Translations under genes and position numbers: made by a program
DNA from: a phage
Strand: one strand, 5' to 3'
Assembly (NCBI GenBank): GCA_024613925.1
Contig: GCA_024613925.1_4713.1
DNA: 64,000 nucleotides
The notes under the pieces: model-generated
The model's input: the letters and a program-made list of their open reading frames with translations, nothing else
The model's database searches: none
Told to the model about the DNA's origin: nothing
Part shown: one piece after another, positions 5,227 through 59,361 of the stretch
Position numbering within the stretch: position 1 is the first letter of the stretch
Layout: each line of letters begins with the position of its first letter

Positions 5227-7785
5227 TTACTGCTCTTCACGTTCCAGCAGATACTCGGAAGCGGTAATACCGTTTACCGTACGTACTGCTTTCAGACGAG
5301 TATCATCACTCAGAATCACGGTAACAGATTGCAGACCTTTTACTTTGGTTTCGAAGGTCTTGAACACCTGATCCAGCATACGAGCAATGCTTGGGTTGGT
5401 TGCAGCCGATGCGTGAGTGTAACCGCTCTGGTTCAGCTTCAGAATCTTGGCGTTGGTCGGTACGCGAACAACAACATGCGGACGCATCGCGAACACGCTG
5501 TGATTAAACCAGTAAGCATCGTTGCTATCTTCGTCGGTAACGATGTCCGGATTAACACGCATATCCTCGATAGCCGCATCCGCCAAACGACGTTCGATTT
5601 CGTCAGCATCCAGAGAGCCATCTTTCTCCAGTTCTGCACGATACTCGCTCATGGCAACCAGATGACGTTCACGATTCGCTGCGGATTTTTCGTGAGCTGC
5701 TTTCAGGTAGTCATGCATGTTGTACAGTTCAGCCATGGAAAGACGAATGTTCCACTGACCTTCGCCATCACGATTGCAGTAGAGACACTTCAGCATGTTG
5801 ACCCAGGTGTAGTAGCAATTGGAGAACTCATCTTCAATGAACTTCTGGTCCATTTTAAGATCGTGAATCAGCCAACCGGACAGTTCTCCGATATCATCAA
5901 CGAAGCTAGAGATGGTGGTTTCAGAGAAGTTCTTCGGTACGATACGTTTGATCAGCTTATTGACGTCTTTGGTCATGCTATCGTTCAGGAAATGCCAGAT
6001 ACGCAGAGGAATGACATCTCGATACTGTTGCATGATCTGACGATAAGCTTTGATATCGTCGCTACGACCTTTATCAATAGACAACGCATCCAGGAATTCA
6101 TGGATTGCATCCAGCTCTTTGTCGGTATAGGTTCCCAGATAGGAATTGACGGTGGCCAGGAATGCTAATGCGTCGTTTTGGTTAACGTCGGTGTTGGTCT
6201 GCTGAATGATCGCCACTGCGGCTTTAGTTTCAGCATCCTCAACGCTTGACGCTGCGATTGCATCGGTGACGGTAAACAGTTTCATTTCGCGCTGCTCACC
6301 GACAACGATTGGCTCACGCTGAACCGGCTTGTTAAGACTAACACGAACAACTTCTGCTTGCGCGATGCGATCCAGTTTTGCCATTTCCTGCTCTGCCATA
6401 CGACGAGCGGTTGGATCTGATTCAAGTTCGATGTATTCCACTTCTTCCTCCGTGAGGGATGTAATGTCAACAATGGTTTCATGAAGAATTCCGTTTTCGT
6501 CGATACGTGCCCGACGAGCGAAGTGCCTGAAGTCATACAACGTTGGCCAGCGACTATTAGGTGCGTAGTCTTTGGCTTTCAGACGCATCTGCATAAATTC
6601 TTCATGTTGAACAACACGACCGTAACGCTTAGCATCTTCGGTCGCATCAATTGGATTAACGGTCTTTGTTACCGTAGCGGAACGAGCCGTACGAATGGGT
6701 TCCGGTTTCACCTGCGCAGGTTCAGGTTGAACGGGTTTCTGCTGCCCAGCCTTAACATGCCATTCGGGCTCTTCGTACTGCTCAGCAAATTGCTCAGCCG
6801 CTGCAAAGATATCGTTGATACCACCAATATCTCCTTCAGGATTTGTCGAGTAAATCCGTGGTTGTGGTGCCTCGTAACGCGGCGCTGTAGCAGCAGGTGC
6901 ATCATCAACGATAGGATCGTCATCACCAACATCATACAAACGGTTGAACGCACAATCCTTCGAATCGATGTACGATGGCGCTTGTGGTTGAACAACCGTC
7001 GGCCGAGGTTGTGCGCCGTATCCTGGCGTTGTTGGAGCCATACCACGCATAACTGCCGGATTAGGCCGGTATTGCGGTTGTGGATAGGTTCCACCATACA
7101 TGGCATATGCAGGCTGTTGTGGTTGACCGTACCCGTTGCTAACCATTGCGCTTGCTTGCGGCCCACGATAAGTCATCCCCATCTGCATCACCTGCTGCTT
7201 CAAACCACGTGACTTCTGAGCGATTTGCGCTAGGCTTCCGCTTTTATTCAGCTGCGTGTACTTATTCGCGGCTTCCGGGTTAATGCGTGATAATTCAATC
7301 GCGCGATAATATTCCGGGTACTGATTAGGTTCAAAGAGCCACGTTACAAGATGATACAGCGCAACTGTGCTCACAGCAGCAGAGACGATCTGGTCGTCGG
7401 ACGCGTTCTGCGGCATCGGGTTGATGTAAGAGAACACGTTCCAACAACAGTCTTCAACAAGCGATTCCATCATCATGTCGTTATTGGTATAACGTGCGAC
7501 GAACTCGGTTTGTATTTTGTCTTGCTGAGCGAAGTCTTTCAGGACATTAAAGATAGCTTGACGGATTTTAACGATCGTCGCTTCTTGGGTGATGAAGTTA
7601 TAGTTCTGCTGATATGAGGGTTGTTGGTATTGTGGTGGTTGATAGGCGTTATTCGGGTATGCGCCGTACGGTGATTGCTGATACTGTTGCTGACGAACCT
7701 GTTCAGCCGCATAATTAACCGTGCTCGTATAAGGGTTTTCGCTATAGCCCATTTGTTGATACATGTTGTTACTACCGTTATACAT
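5227..7785 (-). CDS. hypothetical protein (852 aa) with Q/Y/P/N-rich low-complexity N-terminus and a second Q/P/Y/G-rich segment
   Basis: ATG with AAAGGA RBS; residues 1-65 and about 197-272 are dominated by Q, Y, P, N, G; the rest looks globular. Confidence 0.6.
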   Translation of the reverse strand: MYNGSNNMYQQMGYSENPYTSTVNYAAEQVRQQQYQQSPYGAYPNNAYQPPQYQQPSYQQNYNFITQEATIVKIRQAIFNVLKDFAQQDKIQTEFVARYTNNDMMMESLVEDCCWNVFSYINPMPQNASDDQIVSAAVSTVALYHLVTWLFEPNQYPEYYRAIELSRINPEAANKYTQLNKSGSLAQIAQKSRGLKQQVMQMGMTYRGPQASAMVSNGYGQPQQPAYAMYGGTYPQPQYRPNPAVMRGMAPTTPGYGAQPRPTVVQPQAPSYIDSKDCAFNRLYDVGDDDPIVDDAPAATAPRYEAPQPRIYSTNPEGDIGGINDIFAAAEQFAEQYEEPEWHVKAGQQKPVQPEPAQVKPEPIRTARSATVTKTVNPIDATEDAKRYGRVVQHEEFMQMRLKAKDYAPNSRWPTLYDFRHFARRARIDENGILHETIVDITSLTEEEVEYIELESDPTARRMAEQEMAKLDRIAQAEVVRVSLNKPVQREPIVVGEQREMKLFTVTDAIAASSVEDAETKAAVAIIQQTNTDVNQNDALAFLATVNSYLGTYTDKELDAIHEFLDALSIDKGRSDDIKAYRQIMQQYRDVIPLRIWHFLNDSMTKDVNKLIKRIVPKNFSETTISSFVDDIGELSGWLIHDLKMDQKFIEDEFSNCYYTWVNMLKCLYCNRDGEGQWNIRLSMAELYNMHDYLKAAHEKSAANRERHLVAMSEYRAELEKDGSLDADEIERRLADAAIEDMRVNPDIVTDEDSNDAYWFNHSVFAMRPHVVVRVPTNAKILKLNQSGYTHASAATNPSIARMLDQVFKTFETKVKGLQSVTVILSDDTRLKAVRTVNGITASEYLLEREEQ

Positions 7786-11330: not shown

Positions 11331-11428
11331 TGACTTATGTATCACGGTGCCGGATGAATGTCCGGTGCAATGAAACCATCCGCAACGTTGTCGTCAAGAA
11401 TATCGTCCAACGAAGCAGCTACGGTAGT

Positions 11429-13651
11429 TCAGTTAGTCTGAACAGGCAGCTTGATGTTTTCAGTGTAGACCTTACGCAGGTTCACAACGTTAATCAGACC
11501 CAGCAGCGGGCAGTTGTTAACGAAGCGGCAGCGCGGCTGAACCATGGTTTCTTTAGAAACCTGACCGTTACGGGTAACCTGAGCAACAGATACCAGTTCC
11601 GGTACGTACAGGAACATACCGAAGGTCAGCGGATCCGGAGAACCCTGGATACCACGAGACAGGGTCACGAAGATCTTATCACGCAGCAGGACGTTCGGGT
11701 TATCTACAACCACGAAGTTGAAGCTTACACCAACGGTACGGAAATCACCATCGGTCTGCAGGAACTGCGGGATGTAGTTGTCAGTTGCTACTACGCAACG
11801 CGGTTTCTCATCAGCGTTGGAAGACAGCAGCTGCAGAGCTGGCTGATAACCAGACTCGGAGTACATGCGATATGCCATCTCACGAATCACGTTCATGATC
11901 GCAGCGGACACTTCAGCACGACGTTCTGCAGTGGTGGTACCCTGAACAGATTTCTCCAGGTCCAGATTGATTTCTTCGAACCACGGACGGATCAGGTAAC
12001 GACCGAAACCTTCGATCTGGATGTCGCCGAACTGACGGAAGCGAGAGGTCGCAACCGCTTTCAGTGCGTCTTTGTAGCTGAACAGTTTCTCAACCATCAG
12101 GTTGTCGAAACGTGCGTTAGCAGCTTGGATCAGAACGTCCAGGTCGGCAGCGTTTTCTTCCCAATCCAGCGGACGAGGAATGGAGAACGGAGCCAGCAGG
12201 CCGATTGCGTAACGTTCTTGCTTCATGTTGAAGTCAAGGTGCTTACCGCGTTCACGACGGTTGCTGTTGTTACGACGGATACGCAGTTCGTAACCAACCA
12301 GTTTGAAGCTCAGGTCTTCAGCCAGTTGTTTGAACTCTTCGCTCTTACGCGGTTGTTCGATGTTGTCCTGATCAACCAGGCGATACAGTTCAGCGTTAGC
12401 GCCGTTAACACGCAGACCGGCTTTCTCTACGTTGGAAGAACCGTAAACTTCGATTGCCAGCTGAGCAGCGGATTTCGAATCGATGATGTCCTGCAGCGCT
12501 TCAGCTCGTGCACCTTTAACGTCAACGGTGTGCTCATCAACGAAGATGGAGTGGGTGTCGAACGCCAGGGTCATTTTGCGGAAGTCGCCTTCCAGGGATT
12601 TCTGGAAACCGTTGGTGATCAGACCAGATACGTCGAACGGTACGTAAGAGGTTTTGCTGTGCTTGGTAGATTTGATTTCCACCAGGATTTTGGTCAGCGT
12701 GATCTGGGCGTCCAGCGCATCGGTGTTGTCGCTGTAACCGTTAGCCAGGATGCTATCGTCTTCAGCAATACCGATCATGTCGATCAGTTTATCAACAGCC
12801 AGGTAAGACGTTTTATAAGTTACGCCTTTAATTTCGATGTTGCGCGGAGCAACGATAGCTTTGTCAACGAAGTACTGCGCGTTGGCATCGTCAGCACGAT
12901 AGATCGGATGCAGATCGGTCACGTCGTTGGACAGAACGTCGTTGTACATGAACGCATCCAGCAGCGGACGACGTACCCAATCAGCCGGAGTACCGTCAGC
13001 GTTACGACGCAGGTGGTTGAACACCAGCGGACGACGGAAAGATACGTCGTAACCGATCTGGTTCGGAGCCAGAACGATGGTGTTATACAGTTCGTTACCC
13101 ATGCGGCTCAGACGAGAAGCCTTCACGTTGAACACAACGGAGTACGGCATCATGTCACGCAGTTCTTTCTGGTCGTAAGACAGCTGAACCAGTTCTTCAG
13201 ATTCGCAACCGCAGGAATCAGCAGCCATCATGACGAAGTTAGAGCTGTCAACTTCACGGCCAGACGGAGTGGTGCTGATGTTCATGGAACGTGCTTGTTT
13301 AGCGTATTCCACCGGGTTACCATGAGCCAGCATGATCAGTGCTGCTGCACGAGCCTGCTGTGCGTTCATGGTGAACAGCTGTTCTTCAATACGCTGCTTC
13401 TCTTCCGGAGTGGTGGTTTCGAAGCCCAGCATGGACAGAACCGGTTCTTCTGCTTTACGGATGTCGCTGCTGAAGCTCTTAACATCCATTTCGTTAACCA
13501 GTTTGTCCATGGATTTGAAATCAACCTTAGAAGCAGATTCCATAGACAGGAAGGTGTTCTCCAGACCTTTGTCTGCTGGTTTGCTACCATTAGCGGTCAG
13601 GAACTGGCGAGTGGCCGCGACCTGTTGGCTAAGAAGGGTTTTATCATTCAT
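11429..13651 (-). CDS. major capsid protein candidate (740 aa; size as in phiKZ-type capsid proteins)
   Basis: Very strong codon bias (the antisense strand is stop-free for 766 codons), TGTAAAGGA RBS region, placed in a head-gene block next to the inner-body-like paralogs. No direct homology test was possible. Confidence 0.5.
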   Translation of the reverse strand: MNDKTLLSQQVAATRQFLTANGSKPADKGLENTFLSMESASKVDFKSMDKLVNEMDVKSFSSDIRKAEEPVLSMLGFETTTPEEKQRIEEQLFTMNAQQARAAALIMLAHGNPVEYAKQARSMNISTTPSGREVDSSNFVMMAADSCGCESEELVQLSYDQKELRDMMPYSVVFNVKASRLSRMGNELYNTIVLAPNQIGYDVSFRRPLVFNHLRRNADGTPADWVRRPLLDAFMYNDVLSNDVTDLHPIYRADDANAQYFVDKAIVAPRNIEIKGVTYKTSYLAVDKLIDMIGIAEDDSILANGYSDNTDALDAQITLTKILVEIKSTKHSKTSYVPFDVSGLITNGFQKSLEGDFRKMTLAFDTHSIFVDEHTVDVKGARAEALQDIIDSKSAAQLAIEVYGSSNVEKAGLRVNGANAELYRLVDQDNIEQPRKSEEFKQLAEDLSFKLVGYELRIRRNNSNRRERGKHLDFNMKQERYAIGLLAPFSIPRPLDWEENAADLDVLIQAANARFDNLMVEKLFSYKDALKAVATSRFRQFGDIQIEGFGRYLIRPWFEEINLDLEKSVQGTTTAERRAEVSAAIMNVIREMAYRMYSESGYQPALQLLSSNADEKPRCVVATDNYIPQFLQTDGDFRTVGVSFNFVVVDNPNVLLRDKIFVTLSRGIQGSPDPLTFGMFLYVPELVSVAQVTRNGQVSKETMVQPRCRFVNNCPLLGLINVVNLRKVYTENIKLPVQTN

Positions 13652-13800
13652 TGAAAGTATCCTTTACAGAATTAACTTATATAAGTCGGTCGATAGACCA
13701 TAGCGTACACGCGTGCATGCGCCACTATAGTATCAGTAAACACTTACCGTTATTGAGGTCGTGATACAACACTAAAAATGCCGCATAACTTTTCCCTACG

Positions 13801-49538: not shown

Positions 49539-50858
49539 TTACGCGACGACAGAGTCGAGTTTCGCTGACACTTTGAACAGATCGTTGTTGATAACCGTAG
49601 ACAGTGTTTTCTGAACCTGCTCCTGCTTCACGGCTTGATGAACGTCAGGACGCAATGCGATGGTAATGAGCTCCATAATGGTACGATTATCGTTGAGAGT
49701 TTTCAAGATCTTGTCGATTTCCTTTATTGCGTCTAATGTCGATACGCGGATATCCTGAGGCAAATCGCGATCTTTAAGACGCCCAACCAACTCTTGTTTT
49801 AATTTCGCAACACGATCCTTATCACTGGTATACGTGGAATAGGTGAAGTCATACTGCGTTATTGTTTTCAGGTTGACGAAAAGAGCCACCGTGCCCATTG
49901 TACCCAGGAATGGGTTAATTAACGATAAACCGGCGATTGCACTAATAACTGACAATGAACATATGGCATATTGCGCCCAAACACTAACGCGATCCCTTAC
50001 TGATATTCTTCCGAAGTGTTTATACATCTTCGCTAGTGTGTCTGCCATTGCAGCCCCACCACCATGACGGGTGACGAATTGATCAGCAGCAAATTCCGCT
50101 GAGGTATCAGAATACCGTCCGGTATGCGTTGCGACACGTGCCTGTTCTTCTTTATTGCTTATATACACGGTATACCAAGTGGCAACATCGCTTGATTCCG
50201 CAATGGCGTTGACATCAACCGTTGTGCCCATCGCATCGTTTAATGATTTCGCGAGAGTGATCTTTTTCTCTTTATCCGTTGTTTGCAGTAGTTCGCGTGC
50301 GACGGTTGCGAGAGAAAAATCGGTCTTAGCGGATTCGGCGATAAATTCCAGGAAAGTAAAAGCATGCCCAACCTCGTGCATGATAAGCGCTGCTTTGTTT
50401 TCTGGAATAAATTCCGTGGTACGAATAAATCCGTCGGTTACTAATACACGGATAGTGATTTTCTCGAATGCGCCTTTCACCCTACCGTTGACAAGATCGA
50501 CCACACCGACGACTTCGTCGATGTTTTTGCTTAACTGTTTAAAGTCGCTGTTTCGGTAGAACTGTTTACGCCATTCCTCAATAAGCACGTTGTTTTTTGT
50601 AATATCCGGAGTAATACAGAAACAGTTAACTTCACTCATGTTCGGTATTACTTCTGTCTGGATAGTCAACCCAGTGTATTTGCGTATTAAATCGGTTAAT
50701 ATTTTACCACCGATATATTTTACCTTTTCCTCATAGCTGGTAAGATTATCCATTGTTTTGAAGAACTCGGTCATTTCCTTGAACATGGAACCATCTTGAA
50801 ACTTGATGGCCTCCATCGTTAATTCGTCATGACCATACACGCGTTGTAGTAATGACAT
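49539..50858 (-). CDS. putative membrane-associated zinc metalloprotease (HExxH ... ExxAD, M48/M56-like)
   Basis: HEVGH at residues 161-165 and EFAAD at 255-259 (spacing typical of HtpX/Ste24/BlaR1-type gluzincins, from memory); two hydrophobic helices at about residues 293-330. Confidence 0.5.
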   Translation of the reverse strand: MSLLQRVYGHDELTMEAIKFQDGSMFKEMTEFFKTMDNLTSYEEKVKYIGGKILTDLIRKYTGLTIQTEVIPNMSEVNCFCITPDITKNNVLIEEWRKQFYRNSDFKQLSKNIDEVVGVVDLVNGRVKGAFEKITIRVLVTDGFIRTTEFIPENKAALIMHEVGHAFTFLEFIAESAKTDFSLATVARELLQTTDKEKKITLAKSLNDAMGTTVDVNAIAESSDVATWYTVYISNKEEQARVATHTGRYSDTSAEFAADQFVTRHGGGAAMADTLAKMYKHFGRISVRDRVSVWAQYAICSLSVISAIAGLSLINPFLGTMGTVALFVNLKTITQYDFTYSTYTSDKDRVAKLKQELVGRLKDRDLPQDIRVSTLDAIKEIDKILKTLNDNRTIMELITIALRPDVHQAVKQEQVQKTLSTVINNDLFKVSAKLDSVVA

Positions 50859-51080
50859 ATTACACTCTCTAAATTCACGTAAATTTAAGGGTTAATGGAT
50901 CGGCTGGCCGCACCAATCACAATGTGTTCGTTGCTATGCAACGGCATTCATAGAAATACCTTTTGACGGTAACATCACCTTTCACACCCCAAGCGATAAG
51001 AGTGGTCGGTTAAAAACAACAGAACGTGGGGATGATATAGAAAATCACCTTTTTAACACTTATTACGAGTTTATCAAGCC

Positions 51081-52580
51081 ATGAGCGAACAAGAACGAAA
51101 ACCTAAGAAGAAACTGCTCGGTATTCAATGTCGACACATCAGCTATAACGAAGCGAACGATGGCAGCAAGAACGACCTCATGATCGCAAAAGAGATCATG
51201 TTCTTTGATGATAATACGCAAGCGACGAACCTTCGCTTCTTCGAGAATTACAAACGTCCGTTTTGGGTGACGGTAGAGAGTAAACGCAAGAACAAATATA
51301 AAAAGGAAAGCGAGAAGCTATCGCATGTGCGTCGCTACGATGTCCGTCAAAGTGAACTGGTTGAAAAGATCAGTTCGGTGCTTTATAAAAGACGTGCTGA
51401 TGATAACACCCGTTTACAACAGCTTGCACGGAGTCCCTACCTCTATGGCACGGACGTTAGCGCCAGCTGTTATTTAAAAACCCAATACAATACAAAATGG
51501 CCGGAATACGTCGATAAATTACCTGCTTCCATTGCCTGTTTCGATATCGAAACCGACGTTGTCCACGGGCACGGTAAGATCGTCTGTATGTCTATTACAA
51601 TGGGATACAATGCGATACTTTGCTATACCAAGGACTTCGTTGGTCATATTCCGAATGCGATTGAGAAAACCCATGAGAAGATTCGATATTACCTGGCCGA
51701 ACGTCTGAACACCAAAGAAGATCCGCACGCATTTGAAAAATACCAATACGATGTTCGAATCGTAGAAAGTCCAGCACAAGCGGTCATCCAATGCATGCAG
51801 AAGGTTCACGAATGGCAACCGGATTATCTCCTTGGCTGGAATATCGCGTTCGATATTCCGCGTATGCTCCAGGCACTGAACGAGGAAGGGTATCGTCCCG
51901 AGGATGTTTTCTCCGATCCTCGTGTACCACCTAAATACCGTATTGCTCGCTGGGTGCCACCGAAGACCGACAAGGTATCTGCTTCAGGTCGTAAAACCAA
52001 CCTTACCCTTGAGCAAACCTGGCCGATGTTTTATACGATGGCCACGTATCAGGTTATGGATGCGATGTGTGGTTATAAGTTCGTTCGTTTAGGAAGACCG
52101 GATGAGGGACGCTATTCACTCGATGCGGTATTAGAGCGAAATAAATGCCATACGAAATTAAAAGCAATTCCTGGTACAGAAGGGTTCACAGAGCTCGCCT
52201 GGCACGAAGAGATGCAAACGAACCATCAAATCGACTACGGCGTATATAACCTTTGGGATAACCAAGGCATCGAGGCGTTGGACCAGAAAACAAAAGACTA
52301 TTCGATGACCATCCCTATTCGTTTGGCGGCGTCGGATTTGAAAGATTTCAGTTCTAACCCTAAACGTATCTGCGATAAACTTTTCTTCGTTTATCTTAAC
52401 CGTGGGGAAGTCATGGGATGCACCGCCGACGATATGACTCAGGAAGAAGATAAGTGGGTTATCTCACGAACCGGACATATCGTCACATTACCATGCGATC
52501 TCATGGCGGACAACGGCATTCATCTCTTCTGGGATATGCCGAACCTGAGAAGTTATATTCGATTATTTGTTGCGGATTAA
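51081..52580 (+). CDS. family-B DNA polymerase, N-terminal 3'-5' exonuclease part (exon 1 or N-terminal fragment)
   Basis: Exo I FDIETD (residues 154-159, nt 51540-51557), Exo II GWNIAFDIP (about 253-261), Exo III-like YQVMD (324-328). No motif B or C before the stop at 52578-52580; the called stop is probably intron sequence. Confidence 0.65.
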   Translation: MSEQERKPKKKLLGIQCRHISYNEANDGSKNDLMIAKEIMFFDDNTQATNLRFFENYKRPFWVTVESKRKNKYKKESEKLSHVRRYDVRQSELVEKISSVLYKRRADDNTRLQQLARSPYLYGTDVSASCYLKTQYNTKWPEYVDKLPASIACFDIETDVVHGHGKIVCMSITMGYNAILCYTKDFVGHIPNAIEKTHEKIRYYLAERLNTKEDPHAFEKYQYDVRIVESPAQAVIQCMQKVHEWQPDYLLGWNIAFDIPRMLQALNEEGYRPEDVFSDPRVPPKYRIARWVPPKTDKVSASGRKTNLTLEQTWPMFYTMATYQVMDAMCGYKFVRLGRPDEGRYSLDAVLERNKCHTKLKAIPGTEGFTELAWHEEMQTNHQIDYGVYNLWDNQGIEALDQKTKDYSMTIPIRLAASDLKDFSSNPKRICDKLFFVYLNRGEVMGCTADDMTQEEDKWVISRTGHIVTLPCDLMADNGIHLFWDMPNLRSYIRLFVAD

Positions 52581-52648
52581 GAAATAAATCGGTTAAGTAT
52601 TACTACTCTGTTCGATGGTTATGGGATAACCAAATGGAGTAGTCATGC

Positions 52649-53755
52649 ATGAATAAATGGTATTTACCAGAGGCACGTTTTAAATACTACGCAACTGACG
52701 ATGGTCTTTTCCATTCAACTGGAGAGGCTGTTCCGGTTACCGTTAAAGATGGTATCTCGTATGTCGAGATCGACTGGTATCGTGGTCTAGGTCTATATGA
52801 CGCCGGACTCGCTGTTATGTGTGCGTTGAGAGCGATAAACATACCAATCTACTTACTTGATCAAGCATATTCTCTTTACATTGACGGGAATCCTGAGAAT
52901 GTAAAACGTGAGAACCTGCTTTACCGTTTCAAAGGCGGTAGGTTGGAAGTACCTGGATGTCCCGGCTATTATTTCATCCCCTTCCATTCTCGTTATGCTA
53001 TTAACGAGGAAGGTTTGGTGATCAATGTCGAGACGGGGTTCGAAAAACGCTGGTCGCAAATGAAACCTAACAAGAAACAAAAGACCCATGGCGGTTACGT
53101 TTACCAACGTACGGTAAATGATAACGGATTCACATCCCAGCTTTATCAGCATCGTGCTATGGGTTACGTGTTTCTTGAATACGGTGCCGACGTTATGGAT
53201 AAGACAATAAACCATAAGAACGGCATCAAATGGGATAATCGTCCATGTAACATTGAGTGGGCAACGTATACGGACAATAATAAGCATGCGGTTGATAGCG
53301 GTCTTCGTACAGAAGGATTGCATCCTGTTAAGGTTAAGGATTACAACACCGGTGAAGTCAGGGTATTCCCTTCAATCGCTGCGTGTTGTGCTGCTTATCC
53401 ATGCTTGGAACGTAAACGTGTTTGGTATTGGATGACGCGTAAAACGAAATTCATGCCAGCCTGCAATCTGTATTTCAAAGAAGTTGACGATGATACCCCA
53501 TGGCCAGATTGGCAGATCGGACAGCCTCGTCGTCTTCAAGAATATACGATGCCTAACCCTATCGCAGCTATCGATAAACAAACTGGTAAACGTTATGTGT
53601 TTGCATCAATTGCTCACGCACAACGAGAGACAGGTGTTTCTAACGTGACTATCATGAAGTACTGTCGTAATAGGCTTACAGAAGGTCGTTCTCCATTCAT
53701 CTTCCGCTATTTTGAAGATGTTAGTTCGATGCCTGTAGGCCTTAACGACGCTTAA
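52649..53755 (+). CDS. HNH homing endonuclease (I-HmuI-like)
   Basis: GGAG RBS; HNH core INHKNGIKWDNRPCNIEWATYTDNNKHA; two helix-turn-helix-like modules (FPSIAACCAAYP and FASIAHAQRETGVSNVTIMKYCRN). Confidence 0.8.
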   Translation: MNKWYLPEARFKYYATDDGLFHSTGEAVPVTVKDGISYVEIDWYRGLGLYDAGLAVMCALRAINIPIYLLDQAYSLYIDGNPENVKRENLLYRFKGGRLEVPGCPGYYFIPFHSRYAINEEGLVINVETGFEKRWSQMKPNKKQKTHGGYVYQRTVNDNGFTSQLYQHRAMGYVFLEYGADVMDKTINHKNGIKWDNRPCNIEWATYTDNNKHAVDSGLRTEGLHPVKVKDYNTGEVRVFPSIAACCAAYPCLERKRVWYWMTRKTKFMPACNLYFKEVDDDTPWPDWQIGQPRRLQEYTMPNPIAAIDKQTGKRYVFASIAHAQRETGVSNVTIMKYCRNRLTEGRSPFIFRYFEDVSSMPVGLNDA

Positions 53756-53759
53756 CCGA

Positions 53760-54110
53760 TTTTAGGTCCCGGTGGGGATAACGCCCCCACCGGATTCCCG
53801 TTAATTGCTGGAACCCCCTAAAGCCTTTCGACCACAGCGGATTCTGAAAAGAAAAACGTCAAGGTTAGAAAACAGAAAGGATGTTCGTAAGGAAACGATA
53901 AATGGGCAATCAGCAGCGAAGCTTCTAAGGGCCTGCATTAGCAATAAGACCTAAGAAGAACGTTCAACGACTATCCGGTCGCGCGGAGTAAGGGACAAGC
54001 GTCCCCAAACACGGGAGGGGTGCGAAAGCATTCCATGATATAGTCTGCTCCTAAGTGAAAGCTTAGGCGGGTGGTACACACCGGCATAAGAGTTGCGTCT
54101 TATGTGGACA
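53760..54110 (+). ncRNA. group I intron catalytic core (ribozyme) candidate
   Basis: P-like AATTGCTGGAA (53803-53813), Q-like AATCAGCAGCG (53908-53918), R-like GTTCAACGACTAT (53962-53974), S-like GATATAGTC (54037-54045); P7 pairing GACTA/TAGTC; hairpins CCTAAG-tgaaag-CTTAGG and CATAAGA-gttgcg-TCTTATG at the 3' side. Confidence 0.6.
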
Positions 54111-54368
54111 ATGGCTTGACATTTCTTCAAGTTATCCCAACGGGCAGATACTGCTCAATCTATCCAGAGCATGTGTTTTTCGTGAGCTCTCGCGCATTGA
54201 GGGCGTCTCTGACTATCAATTCAGGAAGTTAGGTATCAACTTTATTACCGGAGGTAAAACGAACGCTGTAGACTTCTGTAGAATCGTTTATAAAGCGCCA
54301 TCGATGTTTGAACTCTTAGAACATTTCGATGCGACGCGTCCAAAAGAGGAAGCGCGGACCATCGAATG
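54105..54368 (+). CDS. possible downstream exon of the DNA polymerase gene (no ATG; motif-A-like DISSSYPN)
   Basis: About 100 stop-free codons directly 3' of the ribozyme core without an initiator Met; contains D-I-S-S-S-Y-P-N (compare DxxSLYPS) and KLGINFITGG. Too short to complete a polymerase. Boundaries tentative. Confidence 0.3.
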
Positions 54369-54416
54369 ATTCAAGTAAGTTGATCCTCGTTTAACAAAAA
54401 AGAAAACGCATGCGAA

Positions 54417-54456
54417 GCCCCTCCCCCTGGCGGAAGCCGGAGGGAGGGGTGGGGTT
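54417..54456. terminator. GC-rich imperfect stem-loop between convergent genes
   Basis: CCCCTCCCCCTGGC-ggaa-GCCGGAGGGAGGGG followed by TGGGGTTTATG. Confidence 0.45.
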
Positions 54457-54941
54457 TATGCGTGTTCGTTGCCAACCTTCACTTTGTAATCAGCGTCGGT
54501 TAAGAAAATAGACAGGAATCCATGTTCTTTGCAAATCTGACTAAGGATGTCAGCAATGATTTCGTTGATCATCGGTTTGTTTGCAAGGGCATAGATGTAC
54601 CCGGGTGTAAAAGAAAGTGCATGATTGATCATAGGCTCATGAGAAGCCAAGATAAGGATCACGTGATGCTTCCCATCGTCGGTAACGACCGCTTGCGTAG
54701 ACACGAAGAAATCAGTGAAGCAGCAGCGATCACAGGCTTTAGGTATATACAAATCACCCAGAGCTTCGTCGCGTGCTTTTATGTGTGTTTCAGGGGTGAT
54801 GCTGCTAAGTTGATCTTCAGCGAGATCCAAGACATCCTCAATCGTTTTAAGAATAGCGTTGCGGAAATCCTCGCGGTAGAATGGGATGATATCACGATCG
54901 TTCATGTAATCGCCGGATTCGATAGTAAAGTTGATGTTCAT
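54456..54941 (-). CDS. hypothetical small protein (161 aa), member of the small-gene array
   Basis: ATG with AGGAG RBS. Confidence 0.55.
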   Translation of the reverse strand: MNINFTIESGDYMNDRDIIPFYREDFRNAILKTIEDVLDLAEDQLSSITPETHIKARDEALGDLYIPKACDRCCFTDFFVSTQAVVTDDGKHHVILILASHEPMINHALSFTPGYIYALANKPMINEIIADILSQICKEHGFLSIFLTDADYKVKVGNEHA

Positions 54942-55011
54942 TGAATGCTCCTAGTGGTTATGTCGATTGATTGATGTATTGATTTATGTTTGAAGGTGTT
55001 GTTCACCTTCG

Positions 55012-55452
55012 TTAGATATCATCATCCGTGGTGCCGTAGGACATATGCTGAATTAATTTTCTCGGCTCGATGAAAATACGACATGTGATAAACACATCGG
55101 GATCGTATTGCTCCACGCAACGTCCGAAGGCTTGTTTTGCGGCTTGACGCACCGATGTTATTTCCTGATCGTTCATCGCATTATCGAATTCGATGTTGAT
55201 CGTGATTTTATCGGGAAATAAATAGATAAAGTAATCGCCACTGATACCACCATCATCAAAGTGACGTTCATTGTAACACTGGACGAGCTTACCTTCACGT
55301 TCTTTCTGATACCATCCAAGGATACTATTAAGACCTCTGTCCACGCATTCGAATGCTTGAGTAATAACATCCTCAACGACGGAGGCTGCCGTGGGACCAT
55401 TGAATAGACGATCTAAGCGCTTTTTCATCGATTTGTCGGTTTTCATGTTCAT
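55012..55452 (-). CDS. hypothetical small protein (about 146 aa), member of the small-gene array
   Basis: ORF-track ATG 55479 abuts the hairpin with no RBS; internal ATG 55452 has AGGAAAAG RBS. Confidence 0.5.
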   Translation of the reverse strand: MNMKTDKSMKKRLDRLFNGPTAASVVEDVITQAFECVDRGLNSILGWYQKEREGKLVQCYNERHFDDGGISGDYFIYLFPDKITINIEFDNAMNDQEITSVRQAAKQAFGRCVEQYDPDVFITCRIFIEPRKLIQHMSYGTTDDDI

Positions 55453-55481
55453 TGTTTCTTTTCCTGTTATAGTCAACATAT

Positions 55482-55516
55482 AGCCCTTCCCCGGCCTTGA
55501 CGGCTAGGGAAGGGTA
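55482..55516. promoter_or_regulatory. imperfect GC-rich stem-loop in the 5' leader of 55012-55452
   Basis: CCCTTCCCC-GGCC-ttga-CGGC-ta-GGGAAGGG. Confidence 0.4.
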
Positions 55517-55529
55517 TGTTTACGTGTAA

Positions 55530-55925
55530 TTACTCTTTGACGTCAGTTGTCGTTTCGACATGCTTCTCACTACTGACGTACCAGAGCAGGTACGTTGGGA
55601 AAAGATTGACCTCTAAGCTAAATGGGATATTGTATTTCTCTTCCATTTTACAGAGATGTTCTTTAAGTAAATTTCTCGCGTCTCTGTCACCACGAACAGA
55701 GTGCCAGTCTAGTTCTTTGTTCTCCTTTACCAGGACCTCTACGATGATACGTTGCTCGTGAACCTCGGTTTTCACAGTGAAAAGTAAATCGCTGCTATCA
55801 AAACGGGTAAAACGAATGTATGAGCCAGGTGTTTTTTCTTGTTTAATAATATCGATCATGGTAGAAATGCGCGGATGATCGATGTTGTCGTTAACAGCTT
55901 TAACGATGGATTCTACAATGCTCAT
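55530..55925 (-). CDS. hypothetical small protein (131 aa), member of the small-gene array
   Basis: ATG with AAGGA RBS. Confidence 0.55.
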   Translation of the reverse strand: MSIVESIVKAVNDNIDHPRISTMIDIIKQEKTPGSYIRFTRFDSSDLLFTVKTEVHEQRIIVEVLVKENKELDWHSVRGDRDARNLLKEHLCKMEEKYNIPFSLEVNLFPTYLLWYVSSEKHVETTTDVKE

Positions 55926-56084
55926 TTTTTTTATCCTTAATGTTATCGGTTTAGAAATATTACTTAAATATTGTTTTATTTATCGATGGTTGTTACCCAT
56001 GATGGGAAAGCCGGATGGAAACAGAGCGTGAACGTAACCTTCGTATCGTATTTAATCGCTGAACTTTATCTTTGATAGACATGA

Positions 56085-56543
56085 TTACCCCTTAGCTCCT
56101 TCTTCGTCTGGAGAGTATTCCATCGTGTAGAATTCATAACCATCGGAAAACTTGAGTGTTAATGTAATAGGGAAATCGCACGGCATAGCTGATTTCGTAA
56201 ATGCGTTATTAGCAACATCAGCCAACCGACGTATAGCATCAACCCCGCTGACGCTGAATGGTAGTTGTATGTTGATAAGGATACGATGCTTGTAAACATA
56301 GAAAACAACGGTACTGTCGAGATAAACGCTATGGAACGGTATTGTTGGGATGCGTTCCACAATGGTAAAATACGTCCCGTCATTATCGCTATGCCCCATC
56401 GACCAAATATCGGATTTGCGTAGATTTTGTTTGAGGGATTCGATACTTCGAGTGACGGTCTCAGCAACAGGCGTGACGTAAGTGTCTCTATGCGAGTCGA
56501 AAAGTTCGTTGACGTTAGATTCGAATGAATACATTGTTGCCAT
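56085..56543 (-). CDS. hypothetical small protein (152 aa), paralog of 56610-57104
   Basis: GAGGT RBS; C-terminal CDFPITLTLKFSDGYEFYTMEYSPDEE aligns with FDMPVILTINGHDGSGLFEFHYDPDNE of the neighbour. Confidence 0.55.
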   Translation of the reverse strand: MATMYSFESNVNELFDSHRDTYVTPVAETVTRSIESLKQNLRKSDIWSMGHSDNDGTYFTIVERIPTIPFHSVYLDSTVVFYVYKHRILINIQLPFSVSGVDAIRRLADVANNAFTKSAMPCDFPITLTLKFSDGYEFYTMEYSPDEEGAKG

Positions 56544-56609
56544 TTTCTACCTCAATAGTTTAACCGGCACGTGTCCCCACCTAACAAGGGACACGATATC
56601 GTTGATTAA

Positions 56610-57104
56610 TTACTCTTCTGTGTTTTCATTGTCAGGATCGTAGTGGAATTCGAACAGCCCTGAACCGTCGTGTCCGTTGATTGTTAGTATAACGGGCATA
56701 TCGAATCCTCGGACGCGCGAATGAAAACACTGTGCTAATTTGAGTTTGGCGTATGCCACTATTTCATTGACGGCAATGCACGACTCACCTGTTATACTCA
56801 GTATAACGTCGATACTAACAATGTTGTCGTGCAACGCAAAACGCCAACGATCGATACGAGTATTATCTTTAGCGGTTGTCTCGTTTACGAGATAGACTTT
56901 ATCATCAACCGACAAAGCGGGACTCCAGCAACGTTCGTTTATTAAATTCGCCTGGAGTTTTAGTATCGTCTGATCGATAATATCCCAACACGTAACCAGC
57001 GTGACGTCAGGCACTGAGTAGAGAAGGGCGAGCACTTTATCCTTTATTTTAGGTGTCTCTGCAGGACGTCCGCAAATACCATGCATTTCAACTTTCTTAT
57101 TCAT
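56610..57104 (-). CDS. hypothetical small protein (about 164 aa), paralog of 56085-56543
   Basis: ORF-track start is GTG 57110; ATG 57104 follows. Confidence 0.55.
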   Translation of the reverse strand: MNKKVEMHGICGRPAETPKIKDKVLALLYSVPDVTLVTCWDIIDQTILKLQANLINERCWSPALSVDDKVYLVNETTAKDNTRIDRWRFALHDNIVSIDVILSITGESCIAVNEIVAYAKLKLAQCFHSRVRGFDMPVILTINGHDGSGLFEFHYDPDNENTEE

Positions 57105-57148
57105 ATTCACTTCTTTCTTAATCTAAATGTTAGTTGGGGATGGGATGC

Positions 57149-57751
57149 TTACATGCTTTCTAGCATATTGACGATCATGGAACCCATACCGAAACTCGGT
57201 CTCTCACCGATATACTCAGCAAGTTGACGGTGTACGTCTTTTGGATTTCCTTCTTCACCATCGGCATCGATGTAGACCGAAAAAGAAACCGAATCGGAAT
57301 CCACGCTGATAACCAGACGACGTTCATTGCGTTCCTTGAGCGTGTCGACGATAGATGCTTTCAGTACCGGGATCGCATTCATCGCGTGCAAGATATCTCC
57401 ATCGGGTTTCGGCAGATCGATCTTTTCTTTCAGGTCGATATTGATGTTGGTTACAATTGGGTTGAGGTCGACCTTGACATAATCGTTGGGATACATGCGA
57501 ATAATCGCACGATCGATATCTGAACCGTAAAAGTCAACACGTAGCTTTAACACTTCTTTGTTTGGATCCATGTTTTCATCCATACCCGCCTGCAAGAAAC
57601 GTTCTACGTTATCCAGTTCACGATAAACTGACGCTTCGATTTCTTTCAGATAGTTGGCTGCGGTTTCATGTTCCTTACGTAGCTCGTCTTTAAGGAGCTG
57701 TACGGTGGTTTCACTGGAACGAATGCTGTTCGCGAATTGGGTAATTGACAT
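57149..57751 (-). CDS. hypothetical protein (about 200 aa), member of the small-gene array
   Basis: ORF-track start is TTG 57781; internal ATG 57751 has AAGGAA RBS. Confidence 0.5.
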   Translation of the reverse strand: MSITQFANSIRSSETTVQLLKDELRKEHETAANYLKEIEASVYRELDNVERFLQAGMDENMDPNKEVLKLRVDFYGSDIDRAIIRMYPNDYVKVDLNPIVTNINIDLKEKIDLPKPDGDILHAMNAIPVLKASIVDTLKERNERRLVISVDSDSVSFSVYIDADGEEGNPKDVHRQLAEYIGERPSFGMGSMIVNMLESM

Positions 57752-57800
57752 ATTGAATTCCTTAAATTCTCTTGAGTTCAATTAATGATGAAAAGCTGTA

Positions 57801-57827
57801 AAAAAAAAAGGTGGGGCGAACCCCACC
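57801..57827 (-). terminator. canonical rho-independent terminator for minus-strand transcription
   Basis: Plus strand A9-GGTGGGG-cgaa-CCCCACC; as minus-strand RNA this is a 7-bp GC stem with GNRA-type loop followed directly by U9; lies just after the stop of 57853-58278. Confidence 0.7.
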
Positions 57828-57852
57828 AAAACGTCAGACACACGCAGGAAAA

Positions 57853-58278
57853 TTAATTCAGTGATGCATATAAGGCATAACGACTGTAGATCTCAACCGC
57901 CGGTCCGTTATGGGTTAACAGACCATCCTGGCTGTAATACTGGAAAAATGAATAACGTTTGTCGAAGTGATAAACAAAAGCAATGTCTTTGCCGTCAAAA
58001 CCCATGACGCGCGGCCTGTTTTTATCTAGCAACGCTTTGACTTTTAACAGTGTTGCCGCACGCGCTTTAACATTAGGGATTAATCCATCACAATCGATAT
58101 AAACCGTGTAACCTGTTTCAGATGTTGCGACGGTTGTATTGCGATTGACGCGAAAGATTTTTGTTTTGTACGTATCATCTTCAAGAATTGGGTTTTGTTT
58201 TTCGTATTTTCGTTTACGTAGAAATTCTACAACGGTGATATAGTTAGCGGTAATATGCCCGGTTATAGCTTGTAACAT
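57853..58278 (-). CDS. hypothetical small protein (141 aa), member of the small-gene array
   Basis: ATG with AAAGGA RBS. Confidence 0.55.
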   Translation of the reverse strand: MLQAITGHITANYITVVEFLRKRKYEKQNPILEDDTYKTKIFRVNRNTTVATSETGYTVYIDCDGLIPNVKARAATLLKVKALLDKNRPRVMGFDGKDIAFVYHFDKRYSFFQYYSQDGLLTHNGPAVEIYSRYALYASLN

Positions 58279-58395
58279 CTCGACATCCTTTTATATTGGA
58301 TTGATTGCAATTGTCTTAAATAGATGATAAGATATTTTGCTCTTATCATTAAGGTAACGCTTACGCGTCGCGTTCATGATGTCATGCATCATGAA

Positions 58396-58486
58396 GGTAA
58401 TGTAGTCGTGAAATAAACTGCGTTAACACGAAATAAAACAGCATAGAACCCTCTCCCAACCCGTAAGGGAAGGGAGAGGGAATATT
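58396..58486. repeat. conserved intergenic cassette, copy B (near-identical to copy A), includes stem-loop 58449-58480
   Basis: GGTAATGTAGTCGTGAAATAAACTG ... CGAAATAAAACAGCATAGAA-CCCTCTCCCAACCCGTAAGGGAAGGGAGAGGG-AATAT. Confidence 0.6.
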
Positions 58487-58493
58487 AAAATTG

Positions 58494-58949
58494 TCACTTT
58501 ATATTGAACGCTTTTCGCAACGCATTAAGAACTAAATTAATTTCTTGCGCTTGTAACTTTAATCCCTGTGCTGAGCCATCAAACCCAAGCCAACGCCATA
58601 CAAGGCATTTTACAGGTTTGTTGTTATCGTCGATACTATATGTGATCTCCAGTGTACTTTGATACGCGTAGTCACCATGTGTTTTCAGCGACTGATTGAA
58701 ATAAATATCAAATGCTTCTTCTATAGCCTGTTTACCGCGATCGTTACAAACAAACGCGATGTATCCGTCGGAATATCCAACTTCCTCTGGATGTCCTTGG
58801 CAGGAGAAAATACTGATGGCGTCTTGCTGAGCAAGATTGAACACCGTGAAGAAATCACCAAATAAAGGATCGAGATTTAATGCGTTGTTATCGATAAGGT
58901 TCCTTACCGCTTTACGGTATTCTCCCAGACTATTGTTCGCTGTAAACAT
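58494..58949 (-). CDS. hypothetical small protein (151 aa), member of the small-gene array
   Basis: ATG with AAAGGT RBS. Confidence 0.55.
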   Translation of the reverse strand: MFTANNSLGEYRKAVRNLIDNNALNLDPLFGDFFTVFNLAQQDAISIFSCQGHPEEVGYSDGYIAFVCNDRGKQAIEEAFDIYFNQSLKTHGDYAYQSTLEITYSIDDNNKPVKCLVWRWLGFDGSAQGLKLQAQEINLVLNALRKAFNIK

Positions 58950-58959
58950 TCTTTTACCT

Positions 58960-59361
58960 TTAAATATCGTGGATAGCGGTGCCGTTTAGCCAACAATACA
59001 ACTTAATGCGACACGGATAGCGATTCGTAGCCAAGAGCAGTTCGTCGCGTAAACGCTGGTAGATTTCATCCTGGTGTTCACGATCAATTGGGTAATCAGC
59101 CCAACATTCGATCATGACGTCACCATTCGTCAGAATCGTCGTACGCATCCTGTCCTGGATACGGCGGTCTTTCCCGGCATTAGGGAAATACATTCCTTCA
59201 GTACGAATAAGGTCGCCGCAGGGCATGACTAACCATTCGTTCGTTTTGCCGGTATTCTTATAATCCATTACGGCTTGCATTGCGGTGTCAACGCTAAAAG
59301 AAACATAATTCCAAACGGATGTCCAACGATAGATTGCGGGTTGTTCGAGTGTTTCGTTCAT
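58960..59361 (-). CDS. hypothetical small protein (133 aa), member of the small-gene array
   Basis: ORF; upstream hairpin 59417-59448 followed (minus sense) by CTTTATGCCG. Confidence 0.5.
   Translation of the reverse strand: MNETLEQPAIYRWTSVWNYVSFSVDTAMQAVMDYKNTGKTNEWLVMPCGDLIRTEGMYFPNAGKDRRIQDRMRTTILTNGDVMIECWADYPIDREHQDEIYQRLRDELLLATNRYPCRIKLYCWLNGTAIHDI

Follow-up and report, generated by a model that had tools for sequence, protein, structure and literature searches.

What interrupts the DNA polymerase gene in this stretch of phage DNA, and how would its reading frame be restored? In the 64,000 nucleotides analysed (contig GCA_024613925.1_4713.1; the whole stretch is called the window below), the open reading frame (ORF) at 51081-52580, which covers the front part of the polymerase, is followed by an ORF of 368 codons and then by about 360 bases without coding. 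A preliminary description had proposed here a group I intron with an I-HmuI-type HNH homing endonuclease, lying next to or inside the polymerase gene. That proposal holds, with the position now settled as inside the gene: judged from sequence comparison, the locus is very probably a mobile group I intron carrying an HNH homing-endonuclease gene within the B-type DNA polymerase gene, an essential one, of a Goslar-like jumbo phage. Introns are frequent in jumbo phages, and this kind of element is already ordinary among phage mobile elements; this particular member is new and unannotated. Two of its features are notable, namely the position of the ORF in the P1 loop of the ribozyme and the occurrence of several different alleles at a single site among genomes that are nearly identical. 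The predicted parts of the locus are the following.

51081-52577, plus strand: exon 1, polymerase N-terminal and 3'-5' exonuclease region, 499 codons, ending GCG GAU (A-D)
52578-54114, plus strand: group I intron, 1537 nucleotides (Goslar homology break, intron-less homologues, Rfam match)
52649-53755, plus strand: homing endonuclease ORF, 368 amino acids (ORF list, Pfam, PHROG HNH endonuclease families)
54115-54369, plus strand: exon 2, 84 codons plus stop, starting CUU GAC AUU (L-D-I)

The intron and the polymerase frame predicted after splicing

The ribozyme was recognised from its four conserved strings, which do occur in the proper order, as had been noticed by eye: P (AATTGCTGGAA, 53803-53813), Q (AATCAGCAGCG, 53908-53918), R (GTTCAACGACTAT, 53962-53974) and S (GATATAGTC, 54037-54045), with P4 and P7 fully complementary. 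The covariance-model search that had been suggested as a check returned a match to Rfam RF00028 at 53742-54067 on the plus strand, spanning the full model (1-253) with 73.4 bits and an E-value of 9.5e-17, the curated gathering score of this family being 50 bits. A second RF00028 match is absent from the 64-kilobase (kb) window, even at an E-value of 0.01.

The splice sites had been left unfixed by eye and can now be placed after U52577 (5') and G54114 (3'), with exon 2 starting at C54115. With the nucleus-forming jumbo phage vB_EcoM_Goslar (an Escherichia phage) the region shares about 96% identity, but the alignment is confined to 51000-52580 and 54114-54600, the 1.5 kb between being unalignable; because Goslar homology breaks at these points and in other chimalliviruses the intron-less polymerases are unbroken across an invariant A-D-L-D, the intron is fixed at 52578-54114. 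The junction is moreover unique, since the bases adjoining the two splice sites differ. The start proposed earlier for the element (52578) was thus exact, whereas the proposed end (54120) lay 6 nucleotides too far. The A-D codons (GCG GAU) occupy 52572-52577 and the L-D codons (CUU GAC) 54115-54120, so that the spliced junction is predicted to read GCGGAU-CUUGAC, with UUGCGGAU joined to CUUGACAUU, and the intron-less target as reconstructed is CGATTATTTGTTGCGGAT^CTTGACATTTCTTCAAGTTATCCC (^ marks the insertion point). A 5' splice site after U52571 (RLFV^LD) was rejected, given that the homologues retain A-D and that the guide pairs with GGAU, not with UUUGUU.

Joining U52577 to C54115 yields a polymerase of 583 amino acids that is collinear with its intron-less homologues. 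Its match to PHROG 3011 ('DNA polymerase') takes in positions 5-570 of the 576 in that profile (E-value 4.4e-178), and the intron-less 201phi2-1 gp144, RSF1 ORF189 and Eowyn gp111 align without gaps across the invariant A498-D499-L500-D501. A peptide spanning the junction matched 291 phage records, in 219 of which one unbroken stretch covers at least 80% of the peptide. Exon 1 is 96.5% identical in nucleotides to Goslar gp068, annotated as 'DNA polymerase', and exon 2 is 95.7% identical to a Goslar stretch that bears no annotation. In the Goslar record (NC_048170, numbered L001 here) the polymerase is truncated at 499 amino acids, and 5861-6679, corresponding to 82470-83288 of the record, carries no annotation over the ribozyme and exon 2; neither the literature searches nor the GenBank record provided a published or annotated description of the polymerase intron of Goslar-like phages. 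The stop-free run after the ribozyme that had been taken for a downstream exon, about 100 codons without ATG, is indeed open (54091-54366, 92 codons), the real exon 2 being shorter at 84 codons plus the stop. The first three bases of the intron, UAA, continue the frame of exon 1 as a stop codon, so that ribosomes on unspliced RNA would halt right at the splice site; the last base of the intron is G54114.

The interrupted gene encodes the short chimallivirus polymerase of B type (PHROG 3011), whose relationship to family B polymerases is faint at the level of domain profiles. Pfam DNA_pol_B_exo1 scores 16 bits on it, under the cut-off of 23, and in a weak profile match (E-value 0.13) to family B polymerases of archaea, DLDvkSSYPN falls on SLDFRSLYPS of Deep Vent, a segment that we take to be motif A with its metal-binding aspartate. 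Motif A reads across the junction as DLDISSSYPN, the insertion point lying one codon upstream of its aspartate. The product stops about 80 residues past motif A, as it does in all homologues (578-709 amino acids), and family B motifs B (KxxxNSxYG) and C (DTDS) were found in none of the six frames of the whole window; the remainder of the catalytic domain must either come from another locus or have diverged strongly in sequence.

The structure of the ribozyme was examined together with related introns, a set counted as nine: the window, L010, L015, L011, Goslar/L016, L037, L085 and HPP-Temi (L numbers designate contigs). Among these, L010, L015, L016 and the group L011-13 are Goslar-like contigs found through relatives of the endonuclease. 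The same layout is found at the same site in the distant L037 and L085, and 6 nucleotides downstream in Pseudomonas phage HPP-Temi. In the window, helices P1 to P9.2 are all present and fully complementary at the coordinates below, each checked for complementarity, and they include a P3-P9 core with its P4/P6 and P3/P7/P8 domains and the P3-P7 pseudoknot.

52574-52583, plus strand: 5' strand of P1, GGAU^UAAGAA, with the splice site (^) after U52577
52574-52578 (GGAU^U) with 53765-53769 (GGUCC), plus strand: P1 pairing, continued by 52580-52583/53760-53763 and 52589-52592/53756-53759
53756-53769, plus strand: internal guide sequence and 3' strand of P1, CCGAUUUUAGGUCC, directly 5' of P2
53770-53792, plus strand: P2 hairpin, 8 base pairs (bp; 53770-53777/53785-53792), loop AUAACGC; four compensatory changes against L011
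53796-53801/54011-54016, plus strand: P3, enclosing P4-P6 and P7.1/P7.2; compensatory changes in L011 and Goslar
53803-53918, plus strand: P4-P5 domain with the P and Q strings; P4 at 53806-53811/53910-53915
53816-53818/53904-53906, plus strand: P5, with a P5a-c extension
53916-53918/53961-53963, plus strand: P6; three compensatory changes against L011 in P6/P6a
53922-53926/53954-53958, plus strand: P6a (Rfam alignment, complementarity check)
53969-53974 (GACUAU)/54040-54045 (AUAGUC), plus strand: P7, the guanosine-binding helix, within the R and S strings
53975-53977/53984-53986, plus strand: P7.1, spanning 53975-53986
53992-53996/54001-54005, plus strand: P7.2, with linker A-GUA-A to P7.1
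54017-54023/54028-54034, plus strand: P8 hairpin, 7 bp, GAAA loop
54050-54056/54061-54067, plus strand: P9, GAAA loop; six compensatory changes against L011 in P9 and P9.2 together
54070-54073/54079-54082, plus strand: P9.1 (complementarity check, minimum-free-energy fold)
54084-54091/54098-54105, plus strand: P9.2 (complementarity check, minimum-free-energy fold)

The short hairpins noticed earlier at the 3' end are present, yet they number three (P9, P9.1 and P9.2) and not two. An unconstrained minimum-free-energy fold of the mini-intron recovered all non-pseudoknot helices (P2, P3, P4, P5, P6, P7.1, P7.2, P8, P9, P9.1 and P9.2). Subgroup IA2 is characterised by P7.1 and P7.2 lying between P7 and P3' and linked by G-U-A (quoted in PMC3428280); in the window these helices are joined by GUA, which on this single criterion places the intron in IA2. 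In a helix table that was registered by hand and checked by script, and that leans towards the assumed structure, the comparison with related introns counted 17 double changes that are compensatory, 7 single changes that preserve pairing and 5 breaks. The double changes are located in P2, P3, P6, P6a, P7, P9 and P9.2 (the Goslar P7, for example, is the compensatory variant GACCAU/AUGGUC), and four of the five breaks occur at outermost helix positions. Column-based counts on MAFFT alignments were dropped, the helices being one column out of register.

The P1 helix is long-range. Its U52577-G53766 pair is the U-G wobble marking the 5' splice site, and its loop of about 1.16 kb holds the endonuclease ORF, so that P1 could form only once the entire ORF has been transcribed. 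In all nine introns the 5' exon ends in GAU, the intron ends in G and (A/U/G)GUC(C/U) stands directly 5' of P2, and in HPP-Temi P1 is a perfect 8-bp helix (GGAU^UAAA with UUUAGUCC). Because the nine introns and the HPP-Temi P1 agree, the guide sequence is assigned to its canonical place and the ORF to the P1 loop. The P1/P2 of the Rfam alignment (53746-53785) was discarded, since several of its pairs are non-canonical and the 8-bp P2 (53770-53792) is left out of it. A separate observation is that 53738-53745, at the 3' end of the endonuclease ORF (GGCCUUAA), pairs with the guide UUAGGUCC at 53762-53769 in 7 of 8 positions and thus mimics P1; given that it is not conserved in Goslar or HPP-Temi, the mimic is probably due to chance, and it could compete with the true P1.

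The endonuclease, its alleles and their probable mobility

The ORF within the P1 loop has, as had been observed, its own ribosome-binding site, GGAG at 52636-52639, 9 nucleotides upstream of its ATG. Its two recognisable domains are the following.

53204-53281, plus strand: HNH motif, amino acids 186-211, INHKNGIKWDNRPCNIEW (Pfam HNH_3)
53582-53662, plus strand: NUMOD1/I-HmuI-type C-terminal DNA-binding helix-turn-helix, amino acids 312-338 (Pfam NUMOD1)

Both exceed their Pfam cut-offs (HNH_3 30.5 bits against 24.8, NUMOD1 24.5 against 22.8), while the I-HmuI_NUMOD-like domain stays under its own (18.8 against 27). N188, H189, N201, N210 and H213 are invariant in the family alignment. When searched against PDB as a single sequence the protein gave no match, whereas a profile of the five-member family matched only I-HmuI (1U3E), with an E-value of 3.3e-10 and residues 112-219 on I-HmuI 8-105, the N-terminal 110 or so residues having no I-HmuI counterpart. 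Foldseek results, used as support only, agree: the sole significant PDB match was again 1u3e (E-value 2.8e-5, from a low-confidence model), and the viral matches were HNH homing endonucleases of phages and giant viruses. The ratio of nonsynonymous to synonymous substitution rates (dN/dS) against the L010 allele is 0.17, and 0.083 in the C-terminal half, indicating purifying selection; the N-terminal part is saturated (proportions of nonsynonymous and synonymous differences, pN 0.285 and pS 0.829). By its sequence, the 368-residue product is an I-HmuI-like HNH/NUMOD1 homing endonuclease, for which nicking activity is presumed from the family.

Beside the start of this gene, a three-codon mini-ORF (AUG CAU GAA UAA, 52645-52656) overlaps the endonuclease start at 52649 out of frame and shares its GGAG. 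A scan of 50800-54700 for sigma-70 promoters and intrinsic terminators found sites fewer or no more numerous than in shuffled sequence and is uninformative about expression of the endonuclease; these phages use their own RNA polymerases.

The relatives of the window carry three different intron/endonuclease alleles between exons that are about 96% identical. The percent nucleotide identity of each segment (exon 1; first 650 nucleotides of the intron; intron middle; core; exon 2) was as follows.

Window against Goslar: exon 1 96-97; first 650 nucleotides 48; middle 43; core 48; exon 2 96
Window against L015: exon 1 96-97; first 650 nucleotides 66; middle 90; core 99; exon 2 94.5
Window against L010: exon 1 90-96; first 650 nucleotides 66; middle 93; core 99; exon 2 79.5
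L015 against L010: exon 1 89.5-97; first 650 nucleotides 93; middle 92; core 99.7; exon 2 82

The histories of introns and exons are decoupled, breakpoints falling at the 3' splice site and within the ORF, and such swapping of alleles over near-identical exons is a signature of mobility. In the mechanism proposed from the behaviour of the family, the intron would excise itself by guanosine-initiated self-splicing and the endonuclease would be translated from its own ribosome-binding site. I-HmuI and I-BasI nick near the intron insertion site (PMC3428280), and the enzyme of the window would likewise nick one strand of the polymerase allele of a co-infecting relative near that site, after which recombinational repair would copy the intron, in whole or in part, into the nicked genome. 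This nick-and-repair model fits the decoupled intron and exon histories of the Goslar-like phages. In nucleus-forming phages transcription and translation are separated, which implies that splicing would not compete with ribosomes and that the enzyme must enter the phage nucleus; both the nuclear entry and the ribosome-free splicing are conjectures drawn from the case of PhiPA3 gp210, discussed below.

A bolder extension, possible although rather unlikely, would regard the three or more divergent alleles at this one site as products of endonuclease-driven competition between co-infecting Goslar-like phages, in the manner of I-HmuI against I-HmuII in SPO1/SP82 and of PhiPA3 gp210. Each enzyme would then nick the allele of its rival at the catalytic motif A, even if that allele already bears an intron, and would need to be imported into the rival's phage nucleus, while the location of the ORF in the P1 loop would delay folding of the ribozyme until the endonuclease message has been fully transcribed.

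Alternative readings and neighbouring features

Several observations weigh against a mobile, self-splicing intron with an active endonuclease. Self-splicing, nicking and homing are all deduced from resemblance to studied families. No empty site was seen among the Goslar-like genomes (the window, Goslar, L010, L011-13, L015 and L016) and, because every one of them is intron-plus, homing into empty sites is without record as an ongoing process. For a helix that has to close some 1.16 kb of loop, P1 is short, with 5 bp and 4 bp separated by an A-A mismatch; in L011 and L085 its pairing next to the splice site amounts to 3-4 bp only; P10 has at most 2 bp, and Rfam's own alignment uses a local, poorly paired P1/P2. 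The lean of the helix table mentioned above belongs here as well. As for the enzyme, its AlphaFold model has low confidence (mean predicted local distance difference test score, pLDDT, 64.9, and below 50 in the HNH region), and immediately before the catalytic His stands an Asn in place of the Asp of I-HmuI.

Some of these points would suit an intron that splices but whose endonuclease is inactive, the element being fixed and vertically inherited and the mosaic pattern resulting from ordinary homologous recombination of co-infecting phages. Every Goslar-like genome examined is intron-plus, with no classical homing target seen in the clade, and the Asn replacing Asp before the catalytic His could be read in the same sense. 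This account nevertheless appears improbable, as the ORF is intact in all alleles and under the purifying selection described above, and one recombination breakpoint falls on the 3' splice site. Besides, the presence of the same architecture in L037, L085, HPP-Temi (6 nucleotides away) and RNA polymerase genes requires transposition events, and I-HmuI-type enzymes also cut intron-plus alleles (PMC3428280).

The locus might also be viewed as a polymerase gene split by a free-standing endonuclease gene, with the 499-residue part and the 84-residue tail acting separately, or the tail lost, and the ribozyme a dead relic. Endonuclease insertions that split phage polymerase genes are known, gene 43 of Aeromonas phage Aeh1 being an example, and the GenBank record of Goslar annotates gp068 to 499 amino acids and nothing over exon 2. 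Exon 2, however, lacks a start codon or ribosome-binding site near its beginning, is under strong purifying selection (dN/dS 0.018) and encodes the aspartate of motif A on which catalysis depends. The ribozyme, for its part, has kept every core helix, with the 17 compensatory changes across alleles and an Rfam score well above the cut-off, and its core is 99% conserved among the window, L010 and L015 while the adjoining sequence diverges. The chance that the gene is simply split is accordingly considered very small.

Finally, a local 5' splice site in the 3' end of the HNH ORF (GGCCU^UAA, 53738-53745, with UUAGGUCC, 53762-53769), which would turn that ORF into the upstream exon, is scarcely credible, for although it offers 7 of 8 pairs, a U-G wobble, the same guide sequence, an Rfam P1 placed in that neighbourhood and a frame-compatible 3' site after G54107 that sets the HNH ORF in frame with the polymerase tail, its complement is absent in Goslar and HPP-Temi while the long-range GAU/GUC is kept in all nine introns, 4 of the 9 pairs of Rfam's P1 are flagged as non-canonical, the homology breakpoints and the unbroken A-D-L-D of intron-less homologues put the end of exon 1 at 52577, and an HNH protein fused to an 84-residue polymerase tail resembles no homologue.

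A further structured element lies downstream of the gene.

54418-54449 (with flank 54396-54449), no strand assigned: GC-rich 14-bp hairpin, CCCCUCCCCCUGGC GGAA GCCGGAGGGAGGGG, read from the sequence and not part of the intron

This hairpin sits between the convergent polymerase exon 2 and a minus-strand gene at 54456-54941, and is likely a bidirectional terminator, being preceded by an A-run that corresponds to a U-run for the minus strand; it went undetected in the simple scan for terminators. Beyond it, the minus strand of 54456-59361 carries nine ORFs in tandem, about 130-210 amino acids each, with their own start codons and short spacers, which may form a paralogous family; their Goslar counterparts are hypothetical proteins, and the content of the array differs among the window, Goslar and L010. 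Elsewhere in the window, the ORFs at 11354-13654 (plus strand, 766 amino acids) and 11429-13651 (minus strand, 740 amino acids) overlap almost fully, and likely only one of them is a gene.

Comparison with known systems

The intron-endonuclease reading of the locus leaves the known mechanisms of group I introns and HNH homing endonucleases unchanged. Its value lies in correcting the annotation of Goslar, a model nucleus-forming phage of E. coli, whose polymerase is recorded as a 499-residue fragment and whose motif A exon and ribozyme are missing from the record, and in providing natural sets of alleles, with the same exons and different introns and endonucleases, in a tractable E. coli system. 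An intron-bearing core polymerase gene also matters for gene calling and for the phylogenies built on that gene. One close comparison is with the Goslar locus itself (gp068/gp069), which shares with the window the insertion nucleotide, the UAA start, the guide GGUCC and exons 96% identical. The Goslar intron differs in its length of 1762 nucleotides and is only 43-48% identical to that of the window, that is, essentially unalignable; its core is larger and, with 44.7 bits, falls just below the Rfam cut-off, and the protein identity between the gp069 HNH/NUMOD1 endonuclease and the window ORF is 42.5%.

HPP-Temi (Pawinskivirus; L005 2928-4649) has its intron in the same gene and in the same order of exon, UAA, a 444-residue HNH ORF, core and exon 2. 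Its endonuclease is 28.8% identical to the window ORF over the full length, and its guide is UUUUAGUCC. Unlike that of the window, the HPP-Temi intron is inserted 6 nucleotides downstream (A-D-L-D^I against A-D^L-D); both 5' exons end in GGAU and both introns start with UAA, which suggests that the element was retargeted to a GGAU repeated within the motif. The HPP-Temi record has small spurious ORFs called inside the ribozyme. Many contigs of jumbo phages have one or even two group I introns in the polymerase gene, the motif A region in particular. Rfam matches exceeding the gathering score were seen in or beside the homologous gene in the IMG/VR contigs L050, L054, L056, L058, L060-L063, L078 and L080, five of which (L060, L062, L063, L078 and L080) have two cores each, away from the site used in the window.

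Polymerases of the other kind are also invaded. In Raoultella phage VB_ZK_P1 (L008 2840-4734) and Shewanella phage FishSpeaker (L009 2910-4874), the same layout, here exon, HNH ORF and group I core, occurs in an RNA polymerase subunit gene, right after the catalytic aspartate motif D-F-D-G-D / D-N-D-G-D and with (A/U)GUCC before P2. Within the phage collection, the closest cores outside Goslar belong to the phiKZ-like RNA polymerase beta introns of PA7 and PS119XW, which are 67-69% identical over P3-P7, score 75-76 bits with Rfam and encode phiKZ ORF179-type endonucleases that share 25-30% identity with the window ORF. The PA7 endonuclease ORF is located downstream of the P3-P7 part of the core, whereas in the window it is upstream, in the P1 loop. 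PhiPA3 is, like the phage of the window, a chimallivirus, and its putative group I intron, encoding the I-HmuI-related HNH endonuclease gp210, likewise adjoins the codons for catalytic aspartates in a polymerase gene that is essential (Birkholz et al., Science 2024, PMC11620839). The target in PhiPA3 is instead the gene of the RNA polymerase beta subunit, and the host is Pseudomonas (PMC11620839). The interference function of gp210 was demonstrated experimentally (PMC11620839), and the same role for the endonuclease of the window is a conjecture. With this DNA polymerase intron, one more member joins the mobile introns of chimalliviruses, for which recent work on Pseudomonas phages demonstrated a role when phages compete with one another.

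Group I introns with I-HmuI-like endonucleases are classical in phage DNA polymerase genes, being found in SPO1, SP82, Bastille and many Bastillevirinae. The parallel drawn earlier with SPO1 is right as to the kind of element, an intron of this group in a phage DNA polymerase gene encoding an HNH nicking endonuclease, and not as to its details. The family of the window ORF shares with I-HmuI the N-terminal DNA-binding and HNH part of 1U3E and a NUMOD1-type C-terminal helix-turn-helix. At 368 residues it is about twice the size of I-HmuI (174), with some 110 extra N-terminal residues, and the relationship of the two sequences is visible by profile only. The host gene is the short chimallivirus B-type polymerase of PHROG 3011 instead of the Bastillevirinae-type polymerase of PHROG 17. 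In SPO1 the ORF occupies a loop downstream in the core; in the window its place is the P1 loop, ahead of the entire ribozyme core. The Goslar-like relatives of the window resemble the HMU phages in still another respect, that of combining similar ribozymes with highly divergent ORFs, as described for the latter by Goodrich-Blair & Shub 1994.

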